A stretch of DNA of 46,849 nucleotides from a bacterium. GTDB lineage: Bacteria; UBP14; UBA6098; B30-G16. The position numbers were made by a program, and so were the translations under genes. Under the pieces are notes generated by a model. It did no database searches and was not told the origin of the DNA. It saw nothing but the letters and a program-made list of their open reading frames with translations. Below, in pieces: positions 22,778 through 45,582 of this stretch; the stretch's first letter is position 1, and every line of letters begins with the position of its first letter. The stretch spans positions 1 to 46,849 of the forward strand of contig JAGGZE010000070.1 of assembly GCA_021162205.1 (NCBI GenBank), read 5' to 3'.

Positions 22778-24229
22778 ATGTCCGAACTTCTATGGGAAAT
22801 CGAGAAAGAGGGGAGAATAGGTGTTAAATTACCGAAATCCGATGTCCCTAAATACGAATCGAAAAAACTATTACCCGATAATATGGTGCGAAAATCCGAG
22901 GCGAAATTTCCGCAATTAGCTGAACAGCAAGTCGTTAGGCATTTTGTCGAACTCTCTGCCAAAAATTATCATCTCGATAAAAGTATCTATCCGCTCGGTT
23001 CCTGCACGATGAAATATAATCCCAAAATAAATGAGCGTCTCGCTAACCTCGCTGGATTCACTAAAATTCATCCGCTTACTCCGGATGAATATGTGCAGGG
23101 AGCACTCGAAATTATGAGCGAACTCGGCAATGGCTTTTGCAAAATCGGTGGAATGGATGCGATAACACTTCAACCTGCCGCAGGCGCTCATGGCGAAATC
23201 ACAGGTCTTATGATAATGCGAAGATATCACGAGGCACAGGGCAATCCACGCAAAAATGTCGTAATCCCCGATTCATCGCATGGGACAAATCCTGCATCCA
23301 TCGTGCTAAGTGGATGGCAACCTATCGAAATAAAATCGGGTCCCGATGGCAAAATCGATTTGAAAACACTCGAAAAGTATCTCGATAAAGACCTTGCAGC
23401 ATTGATGGTTACGAACCCGAACACTCTCGGGATATTCGAAAGCGATATCGAAAAGGTCGCAGATATGCTTCACTCTGTCGGCGCACAACTTTATATGGAT
23501 GGTGCGAATATGAATGCGCTGCTCGGTATCGCTCGACCGGGCGATTTCGGTGTCGATGCACTTCACTATAATCTTCACAAAACATTTTCGACACCTCACG
23601 GCGGAGGCGGTCCAGGTTCGGGTCCTGTGGCTGTGAAAAATCATCTCGAACCATTTATTCCAAAGCCGAAAATTGTATTCGCAAATGGTAAATATTCACT
23701 CGATTGGGATATTCAGCAGTCGCTCGGTAAAGTTCAGGCATTTTGGGGAGCATTCGCAGTTATAGTTAAAGCTTATGCTTATATACTATCACTCGGCGCC
23801 GATGGTATCAGAAAAACATCCGAGGATGCGGTGTTGAACTCGAATTATCTGCGAGCGATTCTCGAAAAGTATTACGACCTGCCTTATAAATCGACATCGA
23901 TGCACGAGTTTGTTCTATCCGGTGAATTTTTGAAAAAATATGGTGTGAAAACTCTCGATATTGCCAAAAGATTGCTCGACCTCGGTTTTCACGCACCGAC
24001 AATCTATTTTCCATTGATTGTTCACGAGGCATTGATGATAGAACCGACCGAAACCGAGCCATTGGAAACACTCGATGCATTCGCCGATGCAATGATTCGA
24101 ATTCGCAAGGAAGCCGAGGAAAATCCCGATATTTTAAAATCCGCGCCGCACGATACAGCGGTCCGTCGGCTCGACGATGTCGCTGCAAACAGAAACCCGA
24201 TACTTACATGGTGGGATGTAAAATCGTAA
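22778..24229 (+). CDS. gcvPB: glycine dehydrogenase (decarboxylating) subunit 2
   Basis: 483 aa with PLP-lysine context 'NLHKTFSTPHGGGGPG'. SD aggagg. Confidence 0.95.
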   Translation: MSELLWEIEKEGRIGVKLPKSDVPKYESKKLLPDNMVRKSEAKFPQLAEQQVVRHFVELSAKNYHLDKSIYPLGSCTMKYNPKINERLANLAGFTKIHPLTPDEYVQGALEIMSELGNGFCKIGGMDAITLQPAAGAHGEITGLMIMRRYHEAQGNPRKNVVIPDSSHGTNPASIVLSGWQPIEIKSGPDGKIDLKTLEKYLDKDLAALMVTNPNTLGIFESDIEKVADMLHSVGAQLYMDGANMNALLGIARPGDFGVDALHYNLHKTFSTPHGGGGPGSGPVAVKNHLEPFIPKPKIVFANGKYSLDWDIQQSLGKVQAFWGAFAVIVKAYAYILSLGADGIRKTSEDAVLNSNYLRAILEKYYDLPYKSTSMHEFVLSGEFLKKYGVKTLDIAKRLLDLGFHAPTIYFPLIVHEALMIEPTETEPLETLDAFADAMIRIRKEAEENPDILKSAPHDTAVRRLDDVAANRNPILTWWDVKS

Positions 24230-24341
24230 GTCGGAATTTTTAGAAAATACAAGTTGTTGAATTGTCCTTTCACGACTCTACCGCGTGTGGGTGTATGTGG
24301 CAATTACTCATTTTGCATTGCTTCCAGCCATGGTGGGGTTT

Positions 24342-24372
24342 CATTTCCGTCGGGGCGAAATCGTAACTCGCA
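24342..24372. repeat. 31-nt direct repeat, copy 1
   Basis: catttccgtcGgggcgaaatcgtaactcgca. Identical to 24491-24521 except at position 11. Confidence 0.9.
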
Positions 24373-24490
24373 CCGGGTCGCCGATAATTAAATCCAAATG
24401 TCAAAGCTCAAATGTCAAAATCCCTTCACTATCACCCATTTAGTCATTTGGATTTTGAGCTTCATTTGTCATTTGGTTTTTGGATTTTGG

Positions 24491-24521
24491 CATTTCCGTC
24501 AGGGCGAAATCGTAACTCGCA
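24491..24521. repeat. 31-nt direct repeat, copy 2
   Basis: catttccgtcAgggcgaaatcgtaactcgca, 149 nt downstream of copy 1. Confidence 0.9.
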
Positions 24522-24617
24522 TTACCTTGCCCAGCGGACCGAGCCGCAACTTCTTGTCACGGTATTCAAGCGTAATTGGCACCGCAGTCACGATTAGATG
24601 CACAATAACGCCAGCTA

Positions 24618-24842
24618 TCAGGATAGATTCTTAAATTCTTCAAGTGTTAATCCGCTTTCCCTGATAATCTTTCGCAATGTTCCCTTTGCAATTTCCCTAT
24701 GGTCGGGAACAGTCAGGCGGCGATAGGGCGGGTCGATATTCCTCAAGATAATATGACTGCCGGTTTGGTGGTCTATGAAATACCCAAATTTCTCCAAGAT
24801 TTTGCATAGTTCGCGCCCCGATAGCACTGGCAGCTTGCTCAT
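24618..24842 (-). CDS. hicA: HicA-family mRNA interferase toxin
   Basis: 74 aa, 'LSGRELCKILEKFGYFIDHQTGSHIILRN...TVPDHREIAKGTLRKIIRESGL' (YcfA/HicA pattern). Overlaps the hicB stop by 4 nt (ATGA). Confidence 0.85.
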   Translation of the reverse strand: MSKLPVLSGRELCKILEKFGYFIDHQTGSHIILRNIDPPYRRLTVPDHREIAKGTLRKIIRESGLTLEEFKNLS

Positions 24843-25051
24843 GCCATTACCTCGACTAATTCCTCGGTGATAGGTGCGGGAATAGCTTCTCCATGCTTTT
24901 TCAGGCTTTCAAGATAACCTTTTATTGCATCGGAAATATTCTCGATGGCTTCACCACGGGTTTTTCCCTGAGAAATGCAGCCGGGCAGCGTCGGGCATTC
25001 CGCAATAAAGACACCATCCTCATCTTGTTCGATTAAAATTCTGTAGTGCAT
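24839..25051 (-). CDS. hicB: HicB-family (UPF0150) antitoxin
   Basis: 'MHYRILIEQDEDGVFIAECPTLPGCISQGKTRGEAIENISDAIKGYLESL'. The ATG at 25051 has SD aaggag 7 nt upstream. The track's longer start (25075) is rejected. Confidence 0.85.
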   Translation of the reverse strand: MHYRILIEQDEDGVFIAECPTLPGCISQGKTRGEAIENISDAIKGYLESLKKHGEAIPAPITEELVEVMA

Positions 25052-25073
25052 TATATCACTCCTTTTCAAGAGC

Positions 25074-25101
25074 AATATAATCGAGGTGAATTGATTGTCA
25101 A
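25074..25101 (-). promoter_or_regulatory. sigma70-type promoter for hicBA
   Basis: Minus strand TTGACA (25101-25096), 16-nt spacer, TATATT (25079-25074), about 20 nt upstream of the hicB SD. Confidence 0.55.
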
Positions 25102-25211
25102 GTTATATGATAGGCTTATTTATGGTGAGTTTATGCGGCATCGAGTTCGTCCTGCGGCAGACCGATTATCCATAATCACGGATGCCATATTATCTTCCTT
25201 GTGTTTGAACG

Positions 25212-25230
25212 AGGGGTTGCAACCCCTTTT
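25212..25230 (+). terminator. GC-rich palindrome plus T-run (terminator-like on the + strand)
   Basis: aggggttgcaacccct followed by ttt. No annotated + strand gene lies upstream. Confidence 0.35.
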
Positions 25231-25739
25231 CGACTAATCTTCGATGAAATAATCTCTCTGCAACCTTCTATCCGAGAGGTCGTCGCGTTAATCAGAGTCT
25301 CGGAAGCCATTGTCGACTGCGTCGAAAGCTCCGCTGACCCCGTCAATGCCCTATTTACGCCATTTCCCGTCATTTCAGGTATAAAAGCCGTATTTCTGAC
25401 CCCCTACTTCATTAGTATTGCTCGCTTAGTTATTGTCCTATCTCCAATTGTTGCTTTTATCAAATAGAGCCCCGATGGGATTGATTTGTCGGGTTGCCAG
25501 ATGAATGCGCGGGATATAGGGGCGACTCTTGTGGTCGCCCTTTCCACATGGGAAATCGTTTCATCACGGGCAGGCCCCTACGAAATTAGGTATCGAAGAT
25601 GTTTTATTGTGCAGGTGATTCATTATTTATTCTCATGCTCGAAAAGATAATTGGAGTTTATGAAAAGTCGAGAGCATCATCGAGAAAGTGAATGTCTTTT
25701 CCATAATCTCGTTTAGATAAACTTAAATCGCTGTTCGAT

Positions 25740-28478
25740 TTAATCGGTATAACTATTTACTTGTGGTTCTTGCGGGATTTTCTTGTGTGGAATGAAAAGA
25801 ATTTCGACTCGCCTGTTTTTGATTCTGCCCTCGGGAAGAGTATTTATTCCGACAGTAATCGGGACTTCATTGCCCTGTTGAAGGCGAATTATCCTGAATG
25901 GCTCGGACATCCCGAAGCCCTTAGGGAGAAGTCTCGCATTATTTTTCACAATCCAACTATCGAGTGTCGTATCGCTCTCAAAGGAGAGTATTCCCCGAAG
26001 ATATTTGCGAAGTATCGAGAGCTGTTCATCGGCGCGCCGCTGCGAAAGTTTTTTGTTTCCCGCAAATGTGCCGATTGTATCCGTATGCCCTGCGACTATC
26101 ACATCGACATCGCCCGATTGTATCCGTTCGACAACTTTCCGAGCGATATATTCCATTCTCGCATTCGTGTATTCGGATTCACTTTGTTTTCCCGCAAATG
26201 CAAATTGCAAAAGGATTAACCGCTGCTGAACCTCGTTTATATTCTGGACAATTACTTTTAATTTTTGTGAACTCGTCTTTGCAAATTGCCCGAAAGTATC
26301 CTCGACCTCAGCAGAAGTATAAAATGCTGAACCTGGTGGCGGCAAATTATTTTTTAATTTCCAATTCCATTTTGCTGTTGTTCCATCGAACTTTGCGACA
26401 GTGTCTTTTCCATCGGCGATATAAATATGCGAATTTTTCAATGGCACTTCGGCATTCGGTTTCACGGTAATTTGTGCCATATTCCAGCCCTGTTCGATTT
26501 CGTATCCCTCGGCGGGTTGAACCACTTGCGGTGGACGATATATCGAACCAGCGGGCGAAAGCACAAGTTCGACCCCACTCGATGCACCATCCTGCGAAAA
26601 TATCTTATCGTCGAATTCACCCTGTATCTGAGCGAGTAGCAATTCCTTATATTTGAAAGCCCGTTCGATTGTCGGTGCACGCACGGCGAGTATTATATCG
26701 GGATTTCGCTCGAGCATCGATGTTATAGAATCGATTCGCACTTTCGATGGTATTTTTCCCGCAGGATAATCGAATTTGCTTTCACCGATAATTTTCGCTT
26801 CGAGTTCGACCCGTCGATTTTCCTGAGGCGTATATATCTTGCCGACTTTAGTCCCCTGAAACTTTTGCCTTTTCGCACGCTTGTGATGAATATCGTAATC
26901 GTTCGGCATTTCGATTCTATTTGCAATCTCGGGTTTCGTTGCCAAAGATTTTTGGACAGCTCTCGCTCGAGCATAAGCGAGTTTATCCGACTCACCATCG
27001 ACAACATATCCACGAATGCCGATTTTGACATCGGGATTTTTTGCTAATCTGTCGGAAATTATCGAAATCGTGTGGTCGAAACGGCTATCGAGTGTAGAAT
27101 CATTTTGGTCGAAAAATAAAATCGGGACAATCGGTTCGTCCTCGGCAATAGAAAATTTTTGAATCAAATGAAGTTCACCTTTCTCGACCGATATTTCAGG
27201 ATGCGGTGGAGCGAAAATGTGAACCGATGTATCTGCGAAATTGTCATCGGGATTTTTCTCGACGAAAACGACATCGGCGGATTTTTGCGGTGATTTTCGA
27301 TTGAGAATAGCGGCGATTTTCAAATCGCCCGCATAATCGCTCGCAATTTTTGTCCACACTGTTTCAGATTTTTCGGGTTTGAGTGGCTCGGCGGAAAATG
27401 TGAACGATGAATCGCTGAAAACAATAGAAACAGGGATTTTCGGTGTGCGAAATTTACCTGTATTGGTTATCGGCAAACCCAAACTCAATGTTTCGCCCGG
27501 AATCGGTTTGCCATCGATAATGATTTTTCCGGGAACGACATCGGGGAAAATCGGTTCTAACGGTGCAAACAGATACTCGATGCCAAAATTATGCGATGGA
27601 ATATAGATACCATCCAATGGAAATGTTATATTATAAGAAACTGCGAAATTTTTTGCGAAATCGGGAGAATAAACCGAGCTAATTCCAGCGGAATGTCCCG
27701 AGACGATGCCTTTCGCAATAAGTTTTTGAATCGGCTTAAAGGAAATTCCAAGCACAGGGTCGAAATCGAGCCAAAAATTTCCGTATCGAGGCGAATACTG
27801 CATTCCGAGATGAAAATTAAATATTTTTATCGATTTCAGCAAACCGAGTTGAATTGCTGGATTCAATCTATCGGGTTCATCGCCGAGTGCGAGATTCGGG
27901 AATAATAGATGATATGCACCGCCATATATTTCGCCCCAATTTTTTCGATATGCGACTCCAATTCCGATATCGGGAGCAATTTTAGAGAAATTACCATTTT
28001 CAAACAATGGGTCTGGTTGAGCCAGCGCCATATTGTTCGAGTTATATCCGCGAGAAATCAGCGATGCCGTGATTCCTGCGAATAAACCCATTCGATTCAT
28101 CGCATCGGTAGCAGATATATCCTTCGATATTTTTTGAGAATAAGAAAATGAGAATTTCCATCGGGATTCGATATTTGCGGACATCGATGAAAAATCGAAT
28201 GCGCCGCCACGATAGAAACTGCAATATTTTGCAGAAATCGAACTGCGATAAATAGATTCGCCCAATCCCCAGAAAAGTCTTTCGTGTTGTGCCGATACCC
28301 AACTTCGACCGAAACTCGAGAGTAATGCAGGATTTAATATAGTTGCATCTGGAGTTGGATTCACAAAATCATCGCCGAATGAAATCGGATTTTCAAGCGG
28401 TTCATAAGGTTGAGCAGAAATAAAAGATATTGCAAAAACTAACGATAGAAATGCCCATGTTTTGAACATTGTTTTCAT
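25740..28478 (-). CDS. outer-membrane protein: PorP/SprF-like beta-barrel N-terminus, Ig/CARDB-like segments and at least two OmpA-like peptidoglycan-binding domains
   Basis: 912 aa with a signal peptide (..FISAQP). The N-terminal ~300 aa follow the PorP/SprF pattern ('ILNPALL', 'PDIGIGVAY', 'HLLFPNL'). OmpA-like motifs are 'IVAGHTDTIGTFAGNKKLSQRRAD...NRRVEILF' and 'IGIRGYVVDGESDKLAYARARAV...NRRVELE'. Confidence 0.7.
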   Translation of the reverse strand: MKTMFKTWAFLSLVFAISFISAQPYEPLENPISFGDDFVNPTPDATILNPALLSSFGRSWVSAQHERLFWGLGESIYRSSISAKYCSFYRGGAFDFSSMSANIESRWKFSFSYSQKISKDISATDAMNRMGLFAGITASLISRGYNSNNMALAQPDPLFENGNFSKIAPDIGIGVAYRKNWGEIYGGAYHLLFPNLALGDEPDRLNPAIQLGLLKSIKIFNFHLGMQYSPRYGNFWLDFDPVLGISFKPIQKLIAKGIVSGHSAGISSVYSPDFAKNFAVSYNITFPLDGIYIPSHNFGIEYLFAPLEPIFPDVVPGKIIIDGKPIPGETLSLGLPITNTGKFRTPKIPVSIVFSDSSFTFSAEPLKPEKSETVWTKIASDYAGDLKIAAILNRKSPQKSADVVFVEKNPDDNFADTSVHIFAPPHPEISVEKGELHLIQKFSIAEDEPIVPILFFDQNDSTLDSRFDHTISIISDRLAKNPDVKIGIRGYVVDGESDKLAYARARAVQKSLATKPEIANRIEMPNDYDIHHKRAKRQKFQGTKVGKIYTPQENRRVELEAKIIGESKFDYPAGKIPSKVRIDSITSMLERNPDIILAVRAPTIERAFKYKELLLAQIQGEFDDKIFSQDGASSGVELVLSPAGSIYRPPQVVQPAEGYEIEQGWNMAQITVKPNAEVPLKNSHIYIADGKDTVAKFDGTTAKWNWKLKNNLPPPGSAFYTSAEVEDTFGQFAKTSSQKLKVIVQNINEVQQRLILLQFAFAGKQSESEYTNARMEYIARKVVERIQSGDVDVIVAGHTDTIGTFAGNKKLSQRRADEQLSILRKYLRGILSFESDTTLDSWIVKNNARLLPKGFGMSEPFRIIRLQQGNEVPITVGINTLPEGRIKNRRVEILFIPHKKIPQEPQVNSYTD

Positions 28479-41175: not shown

Positions 41176-41206
41176 TGGGCGAACGGCATTCGCCCCTATA
41201 TAATTG

Positions 41207-43187: not shown

Positions 43188-43310
43188 ATAATATATGAAT
43201 AATGCAAACTCATTTTGCATTTTGAGTTGCTAATTTTGTGTCTTGCATTTCTCGAATATCGGATTATTTTCATAGAGAAATTTCGCAATGAAAAAAGAAA
43301 GGATTTTACA

Positions 43311-44522
43311 ATGCTACCTATCGATTATCTAAAAGAGTTATCGTTCGTCAGAATGGGTGGAAGCGAAATGGAACACAAAGCCGCTAATCTCATTGCTGGT
43401 TGGCTCGAGCAGTTCGGTTATAAATCCACTATCGAGGAATTTGAAATCGGCGCATTTAAACCGGGTTCTGGCACACTGAAAACTATCGAACCGAATGGCG
43501 ATGAAGTGCATATCAGTCCTGTGGGACTTTCTGCAAACTGCGATGTCGAGGGCGAACTAATGATTCTCGATATCCCCGAACCTGAATGGGCAGACAAGAA
43601 TAAACTCAAAGATAAAATAGTGCTAATGGCTCACTATCCACGAAGAAAATGGGTAAATTTGCTATATGAATCGGGAGCGAAATGCGGGATTACAGTTGTC
43701 GATGATATTCGAATTAACGCATATATCAAACTCGGTCAAGAAGTTGCGGATGATTTCGGTGATAAATTTGCACTTGCAACAATCGGTTATAAATATGCAA
43801 TCGATTTGGTGAACAAAGGCATCGAGCGTGTAAAAGTCCATACCGAGCAGGAAAAATTCATCGGCAAATCGCACAATGTAATAGCGGAAATTCCCGGCAA
43901 AACCGATAGAACGATTATCCTGACAGCACATTACGATAGCACGCCATCGTCGCCGGGTGCTCAGGACAACGCCGCAGGATGTGTGGAAATGCTCGATATC
44001 GCAAAATCACTCGCAGGTAAAAAATTCGAGCGAACAATAAAATTTATATTTTGCGGTTCTGAGGAAATGGGACTTCTCGGAAGTAAGGCGTTCTCGGAAT
44101 CTCACATCGATGAACTCGATAAAATCGATTTTCTCATCAATTTGGATGTCGGCGGAAATCCATTCAATCCAGTTTTCGCACGAGCATTGGGAACGGAAAA
44201 ATTGCAAAATTTCATCGAGGGATTCGCTCGTTCAAATGGCTTGCCAATAGATGTCTCGCAGAATATTTATTCCAGCGATAGTATGCCATTCGCAAGATTT
44301 GGAATTCCATCGGTCTCGATAGGTCGTGGCGGTATCAGTTCGCGAGGGCATTCGCCATACGATACCACCGATAGAACCTGCAACGAGGCATTGGACGATA
44401 TAGCAAAATATGCACAGCAAATCACCGAAAAAATTGCAGATTCCGAACTGCTGCCATTCCCGCGAAAAATCTCCGAGGAAATGATGAAAAAAGTAAATGA
44501 ATATTTCTCCGGACGAAAATAA
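43311..44522 (+). CDS. M28 family zinc aminopeptidase
   Basis: 'AHYDSTPSSPGAQDNAAGCVEMLDIAKSL' and 'CGSEEMGLLGSKAF' metal-ligand contexts. The ATG at 43311 is preferred to the track TTG at 43215. Confidence 0.85.
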   Translation: MLPIDYLKELSFVRMGGSEMEHKAANLIAGWLEQFGYKSTIEEFEIGAFKPGSGTLKTIEPNGDEVHISPVGLSANCDVEGELMILDIPEPEWADKNKLKDKIVLMAHYPRRKWVNLLYESGAKCGITVVDDIRINAYIKLGQEVADDFGDKFALATIGYKYAIDLVNKGIERVKVHTEQEKFIGKSHNVIAEIPGKTDRTIILTAHYDSTPSSPGAQDNAAGCVEMLDIAKSLAGKKFERTIKFIFCGSEEMGLLGSKAFSESHIDELDKIDFLINLDVGGNPFNPVFARALGTEKLQNFIEGFARSNGLPIDVSQNIYSSDSMPFARFGIPSVSIGRGGISSRGHSPYDTTDRTCNEALDDIAKYAQQITEKIADSELLPFPRKISEEMMKKVNEYFSGRK

Positions 44523-44592: not shown

Positions 44593-44918
44593 AATCATAA
44601 TAAGAGTGGAAATGTATTTATTTTGCATCGATAATTGTTAATGTTCCTGCATCAGAAACAGCTAATTATTAGCACAGAGCATACGAACAAAGGCAATGAA
44701 AAAAATGATGATTAAATGATTGCGCAATGAAAAGCGCCAATTGGTGTCCCAATGGGAATTTATCCCGTAATGGCGGGACAATATCTTCGGGAATATATCT
44801 AGTCAGAGCGAGGACGGAAGATGGCAAGACAGTGGTGAGGAAGGCGGTGTATATTCGATAAAATTTTGAACCGGTGATACCATGTGCGTAAAGCAGACAA
44901 TATTTTTTAAAAAAGACC

Positions 44919-45000: not shown

Positions 45001-45582
45001 ATGAATGTATATATCGAAAAAAAAGAACTTATCATCAAAACAGCCCAGAAGCTGTTTTCTCGCTTCGGCTTTCTGAAAACAACTGTCGATGAAATAGCGA
45101 AGACAGCTCGAATGGGGAAAGCATCCCTCTATCATTATTTCAAAAGCAAAGAGGATATTTTCCGCGAGGTTGTCGAGAAGGAAAGTCATGTTTTAAGCGG
45201 CAAAACGATGGAGGCAATAGAGCGGGAGAATACTCCGCAGGATAAAATTAAAGCCTTCATTGTAACGAGAATGGAATGTTTGAGTGAATTGGCAAATATC
45301 TATGATGCGCTCAAGAATGAGTATTTAGAACATTATGCATTCATAGAAAAAGCCCGTGAAGCAAACTTTCGCGAGGAAATCGAAACGGTCGAAGCTATTT
45401 TGCAGGATGGAGTAAATGATGGCGTTTTTGAGATAGACGATATTGAATTGACATCTTTTGCGATTATCTCGGCGCTGAAAGGATTGGAATATCCTTGGAC
45501 GATAAAAGTTCCCGAGGATGAGATAGAAAAGAACATCGATAACCTATTGGAGATTTTATTCAACGGGATTGTGAAGCGATAA
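45001..45582 (+). CDS. TetR/AcrR family transcriptional regulator
   Basis: 193 aa with N-terminal HTH 'FGFLKTTVDEIAKTARMGKASLYHYFKSKEDIF'. Confidence 0.9.
   Translation: MNVYIEKKELIIKTAQKLFSRFGFLKTTVDEIAKTARMGKASLYHYFKSKEDIFREVVEKESHVLSGKTMEAIERENTPQDKIKAFIVTRMECLSELANIYDALKNEYLEHYAFIEKAREANFREEIETVEAILQDGVNDGVFEIDDIELTSFAIISALKGLEYPWTIKVPEDEIEKNIDNLLEILFNGIVKR

Follow-up and report, generated by a model that had tools for sequence, protein, structure and literature searches.

Between a hicBA toxin-antitoxin cassette and the gene for a 912-aa protein lie 638 nucleotides (nt), positions 25102 to 25739, in which no gene is evident. What is this DNA, and does it do anything? An earlier note, made from the sequence alone, had proposed either a structured RNA or decayed foreign DNA. 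We analyzed the stretch within its window, by which we mean the whole 46,849 nt of contig JAGGZE010000070.1 (assembly GCA_021162205.1). With a probability of about 85%, the stretch is filler without a function that genome rearrangement left behind, with no gene for an RNA or a protein. This reading draws on results that the analysis established: an indel relative to a sister species, the identity of a gene tail within the stretch, a REP doublet and its relatives, a family of short palindromes, and an absence elsewhere of coding signal, structure, and conservation. The features are listed in Table 1.

Table 1. Features of the stretch from 25102 to 25739 and of its surroundings (window positions; strand left empty where none applies)
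Feature	Position	Strand	Basis or remarks
gcvPB (flank)	22778-24229	+	Pfam GcvP2_C and GDC-P
Lineage-specific segment, 1,510 bp	24230-25739		Between the convergent gcvPB and PorP/SprF-OmpA genes; holds a repeat-rich spacer, hicA, hicB, and the stretch studied (25102-25739)
hicA	24842-24618	-	4-nt overlap with hicB; Pfam HicA_toxin, 67 bits, above cut-off
hicB	25051-24839	-	ATG start, AAGGAG Shine-Dalgarno; Pfam HicB_lk_antitox, 45 bits, above cut-off
hicBA promoter (predicted)	25074-25101	-	TTGACA-16-TATATT; 11/12 consensus matches
Degenerate ~28-nt palindromic repeat copy	25201-25231		16-nt perfect core at 25212-25227
Unique DNA	25229-25400		172 nt, 47.7% G+C; atctctc/gagaggt and cggaagc...gctccg helices
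Orphan 3' tail of a T9SS type A sorting-domain (CTD) gene	25401-25586	-	DNA profile, protein HMM, paralogue identity
Tail frame, 57 aa stop-to-stop	25577-25407	-	Stop codon TAG at 25406-25404
Decayed REP doublet inside the tail	25516-25581	-	Aligned with C151, C52, and C25 copies
AT-rich DNA	25587-25739		153 nt, 33% G+C; directly downstream of the 912-aa gene
912-aa PorP/SprF-like barrel and OmpA-domain protein (flank)	25740-28478	-	Pfam

The two flanking genes locate the stretch within a larger difference between species. In the same-genus genome G001 (locus L011), the orthologues of gcvPB and of the 912-aa protein gene are convergent and their stop codons are 9 nt apart; the encoded proteins are, respectively, 85% and 81% identical in amino acid sequence to those found here. 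Because the orthologues abut in G001, the entire lineage-specific segment is an indel, and the stretch studied is its right-hand part. The downstream neighbors of the 912-aa orthologue differ in the more distant family members, outside the genus, and consequently outgroup synteny gives no polarity for the indel, which may be a gain here or a loss in G001.

At the other end of the segment, the word AAATCGTAA(G/C)TCG occurs three times between window positions 24221 and 24521, at spacings of 137 and 149 nt. Of these copies, the first overlaps the stop codon of gcvPB, and 31-nt direct repeats contain the second and third. Between the copies is an AT-rich inverted repeat, the AT-rich unit of which is found in tandem on C91 and in G025.

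Within the stretch lies the 3' tail of a gene for a protein with a sorting domain of the type IX secretion system (T9SS). When its own genome was searched, the DNA from 25404 to 25575 proved to belong to a repeat that is dispersed in about 40 copies recognizable at the DNA level, and the other copies are the 3' ends of long open reading frames (ORFs) on the strand opposite to the query. A DNA profile built from 33 intact paralogue tails of the genome gave a single match (nhmmer), from 25586 to 25401, with an E value of 5.5e-28 and covering profile positions 129 to 306 of 331. Among 47,278 ORF tails, an HMM made from the genome's own tails retrieved the remnant with an E value of 7.8e-12. Over 40 aa the remnant is 78% identical to the C-terminus of a 493-aa protein, which itself passes both TIGR04183 (32.3 bits) and PF18962 (30.3 bits). 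Identities between the remnant and its paralogues range from 72 to 83%, and the over 60 paralogous matches are in the correct frame only.

The remnant begins inside the decayed REP doublet and runs to the TAG stop. It holds only HMM positions 46 to 88 of 88, short of a complete C-terminal domain of ~70 to 90 residues; searched alone, it scores 17.7 bits with TIGR04183, below the 23-bit cut-off, and has no match in Pfam. The first half of the sorting domain is not detectable in any frame, and the DNA profile gives no extension into the AT-rich DNA beyond the tail. The tail frame has no cargo, signal peptide, start codon, or first half of the domain, and is therefore a gene fragment and not a gene. 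The translated search for pseudogene traces that the earlier note had suggested has, in this way, uncovered the remnant of a known gene, a result that speaks against that note's RNA reading. Its alternative, a degraded mobile-element remnant linked to hicBA, was essentially right, except that the remnant is a cellular T9SS cargo tail and not a decayed transposon. The ORF-poor look of the stretch is that of a pseudogene fragment.

Some additional candidates were rejected. A possible first half of the domain in the expected place and in another frame (25588 to 25651) scored -2.3 bits (E = 1.8), which is not significant. A possible second tail remnant at about 25179 to 25214, marked by the word 'IIWHP' after the palindrome, had an E value of 0.85 and gave no match to the DNA profile. 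A 15-nt direct repeat that brackets the tail (25401-25415 and 25575-25589, 80% identical) was no better than 16 chance pairs. The 912-aa protein has orthologues in 12 of 12 family genomes, and no sorting-domain tail follows the orthologous gene in the loci examined among them.

Could the tail be there only because the contig, which was assembled from metagenomic reads, was misjoined via this repeated sequence? The genome is in 185 contigs, many of which end in or near tail repeats. However, synteny with G001 holds on both sides, which means that at this scale the contig is no chimera; the 72 to 83% identity between the tail and its paralogues is too low to mislead an assembler; and the junction sequences are unique. 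An assembly artifact is thus exceedingly improbable.

The doublet in which the remnant begins consists of two inverted units with a short spacer, the arrangement seen in REPINs. The right unit has a perfect 7-bp stem, gggcgac/gtcgccc (25520 to 25540), and an ATAG head; the left unit (25568 to 25581) has kept its GTAG but has lost 11 nt of the hairpin stem. The pair can be aligned with intact doublets within the CTDs of genes on C151 and C52, and it is 81% identical in nucleotide sequence to the C151 doublet. An extragenic copy on C25 aligns as well. Four related doublets are present in the genome, as are about 45 perfect hairpins of the GTAGGGG type. The GC-rich hairpins to which the earlier note drew attention are REP-type palindromes.

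Doublets of this form recur at one place in the sorting domain. The genome encodes about 159 sorting-domain tails, and in 144 domains we aligned the loop that lies between the 'IYDLRGNVV' and 'FIW.PD' strands. About 100 of these loops have the usual ~13 residues, a G+C content near 0.4, and no folding signal. The loops of about 40 others have 16 to 29 residues, all in frame, and are encoded by DNA with a G+C content of 0.5 to 0.67 and a fold z-score of -2 to -6.6. These inserts have an outer stem that closes two hairpins, with GTAG heads in many, which is the form of a REP doublet. The commonest doublet, type A, is 95% identical among ten genes, whereas the adjoining coding DNA is only 62 to 63% identical. 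The gene at L002:1501-2982:- is an example of a sorting-domain gene with a doublet in the loop.

The genome also has three matches above the cut-off to the Y1 transposase family PF01797. One Y1-transposase (RAYT-like) gene, on C149 (9370 to 9925; L076, L037), has GTAG hairpins on both sides; these match the type A doublet and not the subtype at 25516-25581. Elsewhere in the window, a single REP-like hairpin (41177 to 41201; stem gggcgaa/ttcgccc, ATAG-type head) occupies a short intergenic spacer, and a gene on C157 has a hairpin of this type in its sorting-domain loop.

The tail studied here is not the only orphan. For twelve further tails, a search of every frame within 700 nt revealed no first half, and all twelve begin at HMM positions 36 to 55, which correspond to the REP-doublet loop. 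Within the window there is an orphan tail at 44712-44861 (+ strand), a 49-aa frame covering HMM positions 55 to 87. It lies between an M28 peptidase gene (43215 to 44522) and a TetR gene (45001 to 45582), and may represent the decayed tail of that peptidase. Another orphan tail, at C151:8362-8780, has a doublet of the same type as that at 25516-25581 and follows a complete MCP gene by 15 nt; a hicB-like gene begins 20 nt farther on and is followed by cheR.

These distributions raise the idea that the REP doublet in the sorting-domain loop is an active breakpoint that scatters the doublet and tail, together with downstream cargo such as hicBA, to intergenic sites. RAYT-type cutting at GTAG hairpins, or recombination between near-identical doublets, would free the pieces. 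We consider this idea tentative and, on balance, unlikely to be correct.

The hicBA cassette to the left of the stretch has its own promoter, which is predicted to end one base before the stretch starts. The -35 and -10 words are conserved upstream of an 81%-identical hicB in G008, and apart from these promoter words the DNA upstream of the G008 hicB shares no sequence with 25102-25739. Relatives of the HicB protein with 65 to 83% identity are encoded on hundreds of contigs in metagenomes of diverse habitats, and hicA is usually next to them; thus, the hicBA cassette is widely mobile.

Four of the eight hic loci in this genome (C26:5721, C168:26793, C151:8595, and 25051 in the window) lie within 353 nt downstream of a same-strand sorting-domain stop, against a background of 1.9%. 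Among class relatives the fraction is 5 of 28, and the five include the 81%-identical G008 hicB, which lies behind an intact cargo gene. No tail is found upstream of the closest HicB relatives in metagenomes (0 of 58 loci), and the link between tails and hicBA is therefore confined to this lineage. Its meaning is uncertain.

The association would be explained if the tail, spacer, and hicBA formed one mobile unit, bounded by REP hairpins and inserted whole, in which case the stretch would be a functional terminus of that small element and not passive debris. The enrichment of hic loci behind tails in this genome and in its class relatives is in keeping with such a unit, as are the 5' break of the tail at the REP doublet and the C151 locus, where a hicB-like gene again follows an orphan tail whose doublet is of this type. 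But the two loci with both a tail and hicB share the doublet only (81% at the nucleotide level); their tails are 38% and their HicB proteins 42% identical in amino acid sequence, so the loci are not recent copies of one unit. Furthermore, the other end showed no hairpin to match, the upstream tail is absent from all 58 metagenome loci, and the spacer has no second copy anywhere. A unit that inserted whole is, we judge, quite unlikely.

The reading of the stretch as non-functional filler also has to account for the DNA outside the tail. The palindrome near its left end belongs to a family of repeats of ~28 nt. Nine copies in the genome are within two mismatches of the core, mostly right after the ends of genes; besides the copy studied here, there are copies on C3, C31, C46, C52, C107, C131, and C147. 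The palindrome also occurs in G005, in G010 (six copies), and in G022; one of the G010 copies is 17 nt after the stop of a sorting domain. The earlier note had described a palindrome plus T-run here. The palindrome is present, but it failed the scan for intrinsic terminators: it is followed by four T's on the plus strand and none on the minus strand.

The DNA between the palindrome and the tail (25229 to 25400) has no copy in its own genome at up to 3 mismatches per 21-mer, and 26 class genomes contain no DNA that matches it. Its unique 22- to 24-mers were not found in exact-word scans of metagenome and genome collections, and neither of its long frames has a protein relative. Its fold z-score is about -0.2. 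Together with the AT-rich DNA on the other side of the tail, it makes up roughly half of the 638 nt; these two pieces are unique, non-coding, and unconserved, and we call them decayed DNA because the searches were negative.

The possibility of a structured RNA was first raised by base composition and local helices. All the words and helices quoted in the earlier note lie where it placed them, and its hand counts (55% G+C at 25261-25360 and 37% at 2341-2440) are correct. The description of the spacer as GC-rich holds for short patches of 55 to 57% but not for the whole 638 nt, which are 43.9% G+C compared to 40.8% for the genome; 25% of all 638-nt windows of the genome reach or exceed this value, and G+C in the flanking genes is 43 to 45%. 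Windows of 100 nt with at least 55% G+C are in the top 1.2% of the genome. The local maximum of the stretch, 57% at 25483-25582, is the REP doublet. Nor do the helices, described as dense, give any excess of stability over dinucleotide shuffles: fold z-scores were -0.14 (+ strand) and -0.20 (- strand) for 25102-25403 and +0.84 (+ strand) and -0.68 (- strand) for 25404-25739.

Searches for known RNAs and for signals were also negative. No Rfam family matched 25102-25739 at gathering or permissive thresholds; at gathering scores, the whole window contains only a tRNA elsewhere, and in the permissive search (E up to 10) the best matches had E values of 1.7. A consensus scan of 24200-25800 for intrinsic terminators found 0 sites, versus 1.8 expected in shuffled sequences, and no promoter or terminator that could frame a candidate RNA was found by the scan. 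Comparison with related genomes, which the earlier note had proposed, revealed no conservation in the 26 class genomes except for one short palindromic repeat.

The case for a small RNA, leader, or riboswitch in the GC-rich part of the stretch, for example at 25229-25400, is that the local G+C content of 55% is within the top 1.2% of 100-nt genome windows and that several short helices can be drawn. Against it are the blank Rfam results even at E values up to 10, z-scores that reach only -0.7 to +0.8, the lack of a framing promoter or terminator, and the absence of the segment from the sister species, the 26 class genomes, and the collection scans. With no Rfam match, no folding excess, and no conservation, and with the segment missing from the sister species, the structured-RNA reading was abandoned as very improbable.

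A small protein gene is equally improbable. As the earlier note had stated, there is no convincing ORF: the space between hicB and the 912-aa gene holds nothing but overlapping ORFs of 47 to 88 aa. One of these, or the 57-aa tail frame itself, might be real, and a 22-codon frame (25188 to 25120, - strand) is preceded by an AAGGAAG word. However, neither Pfam nor NCBIfam matched any of the small ORFs apart from the weak match to the sorting-domain tail, and the tail frame lacks a start context as well as the first half of the domain. The small-ORF frames have no homologues among 5.8 billion or 1.8 billion proteins other than one artifact of tandem repeats, and the minus-strand frame 25403-25179 had no relative in a word-indexed protein search. 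The artifact, which we rejected, is a lone HMMER match of the plus-strand frame 25129-25401 (E = 1.2e-8); it represents 28% identity summed over eight identical tandem repeats in a 2,980-aa protein.

The explanation that best fits these results is that a 1.5-kb piece of accessory DNA lies between two convergent housekeeping genes. Read along the minus strand, the direction of the neighboring genes, this piece begins with AT-rich junk of ~150 nt that follows the PorP/OmpA gene and continues with the end of a cargo gene, namely the last ~185 nt of a gene for a T9SS cargo protein, from the REP doublet in the domain loop to the stop codon. Next come unique decayed DNA (~170 nt), one worn unit of the palindromic repeat, and hicBA, transcribed from its own promoter. 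We infer that recombination at the REP doublet, or single-strand cutting there, either brought the tail in or left it behind. Apart from the hicBA promoter, there are probably no working signals nearby, except perhaps hairpins by which the upstream transcript is protected or ended.

How does this DNA compare to known systems? Like the T9SS type A CTD (TIGR04183/PF18962), the tail frame has the last ~43 residues, to the terminal Lys and stop codon; unlike it, the frame has only the second half of the domain. Published work (PMC3733652, PMC3337134, and PMC3333891) describes GTAG-tagged REPs and REP doublets (REPINs) that are mobilized by RAYT/TnpA-REP Y1 transposases, and intragenic REP dimers code for 20 to 30 residues (PMC3733652). 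The elements found here are, similarly, short GC-rich palindromes with a GTAG-type head, arranged in inverted pairs and present in several copies, and this genome has Y1 transposase-like genes with flanking hairpins. They differ in that the doublets keep to a fixed site, one loop in a family of paralogous domains, and in that the 25516-25581 copy is decayed, with an 11-nt deletion and an ATAG head.

The locus resembles hicBA type II toxin-antitoxin islets in having a self-promoted hicB-hicA pair in a strain-specific segment between housekeeping genes, but 25102-25739 is the DNA upstream of the cassette and not the cassette itself. No DNA homologous to this upstream stretch was found beside HicB relatives in G008 or in the metagenome loci. 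Rickettsia palindromic elements (RPEs) are selfish palindromic repeats that are inserted in frame in genes, where they are tolerated and translated, and they are scattered over unrelated genes. In contrast, the recurrent site here is one loop of one domain family, and the 25516-25581 copy is in a dead gene fragment. The stretch is a further example of an already published phenomenon, intragenic REPs (PMC3733652).

The stretch should be annotated as a pseudogene fragment plus repeats and not as a candidate RNA. More generally, where a GC-rich patch of hairpins occurs in this AT-rich lineage, it is usually made up of REP-type repeats and the debris of cargo tails. If the doublets were in fact active breakpoints, the tails of T9SS cargo genes would be vehicles that disperse small cassettes, and 25102-25739 would be one landing. 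The concentration of REP palindromes at one T9SS loop, with orphan tails that start there, hints that these are fragile or recombinogenic sites that shape the accessory DNA.
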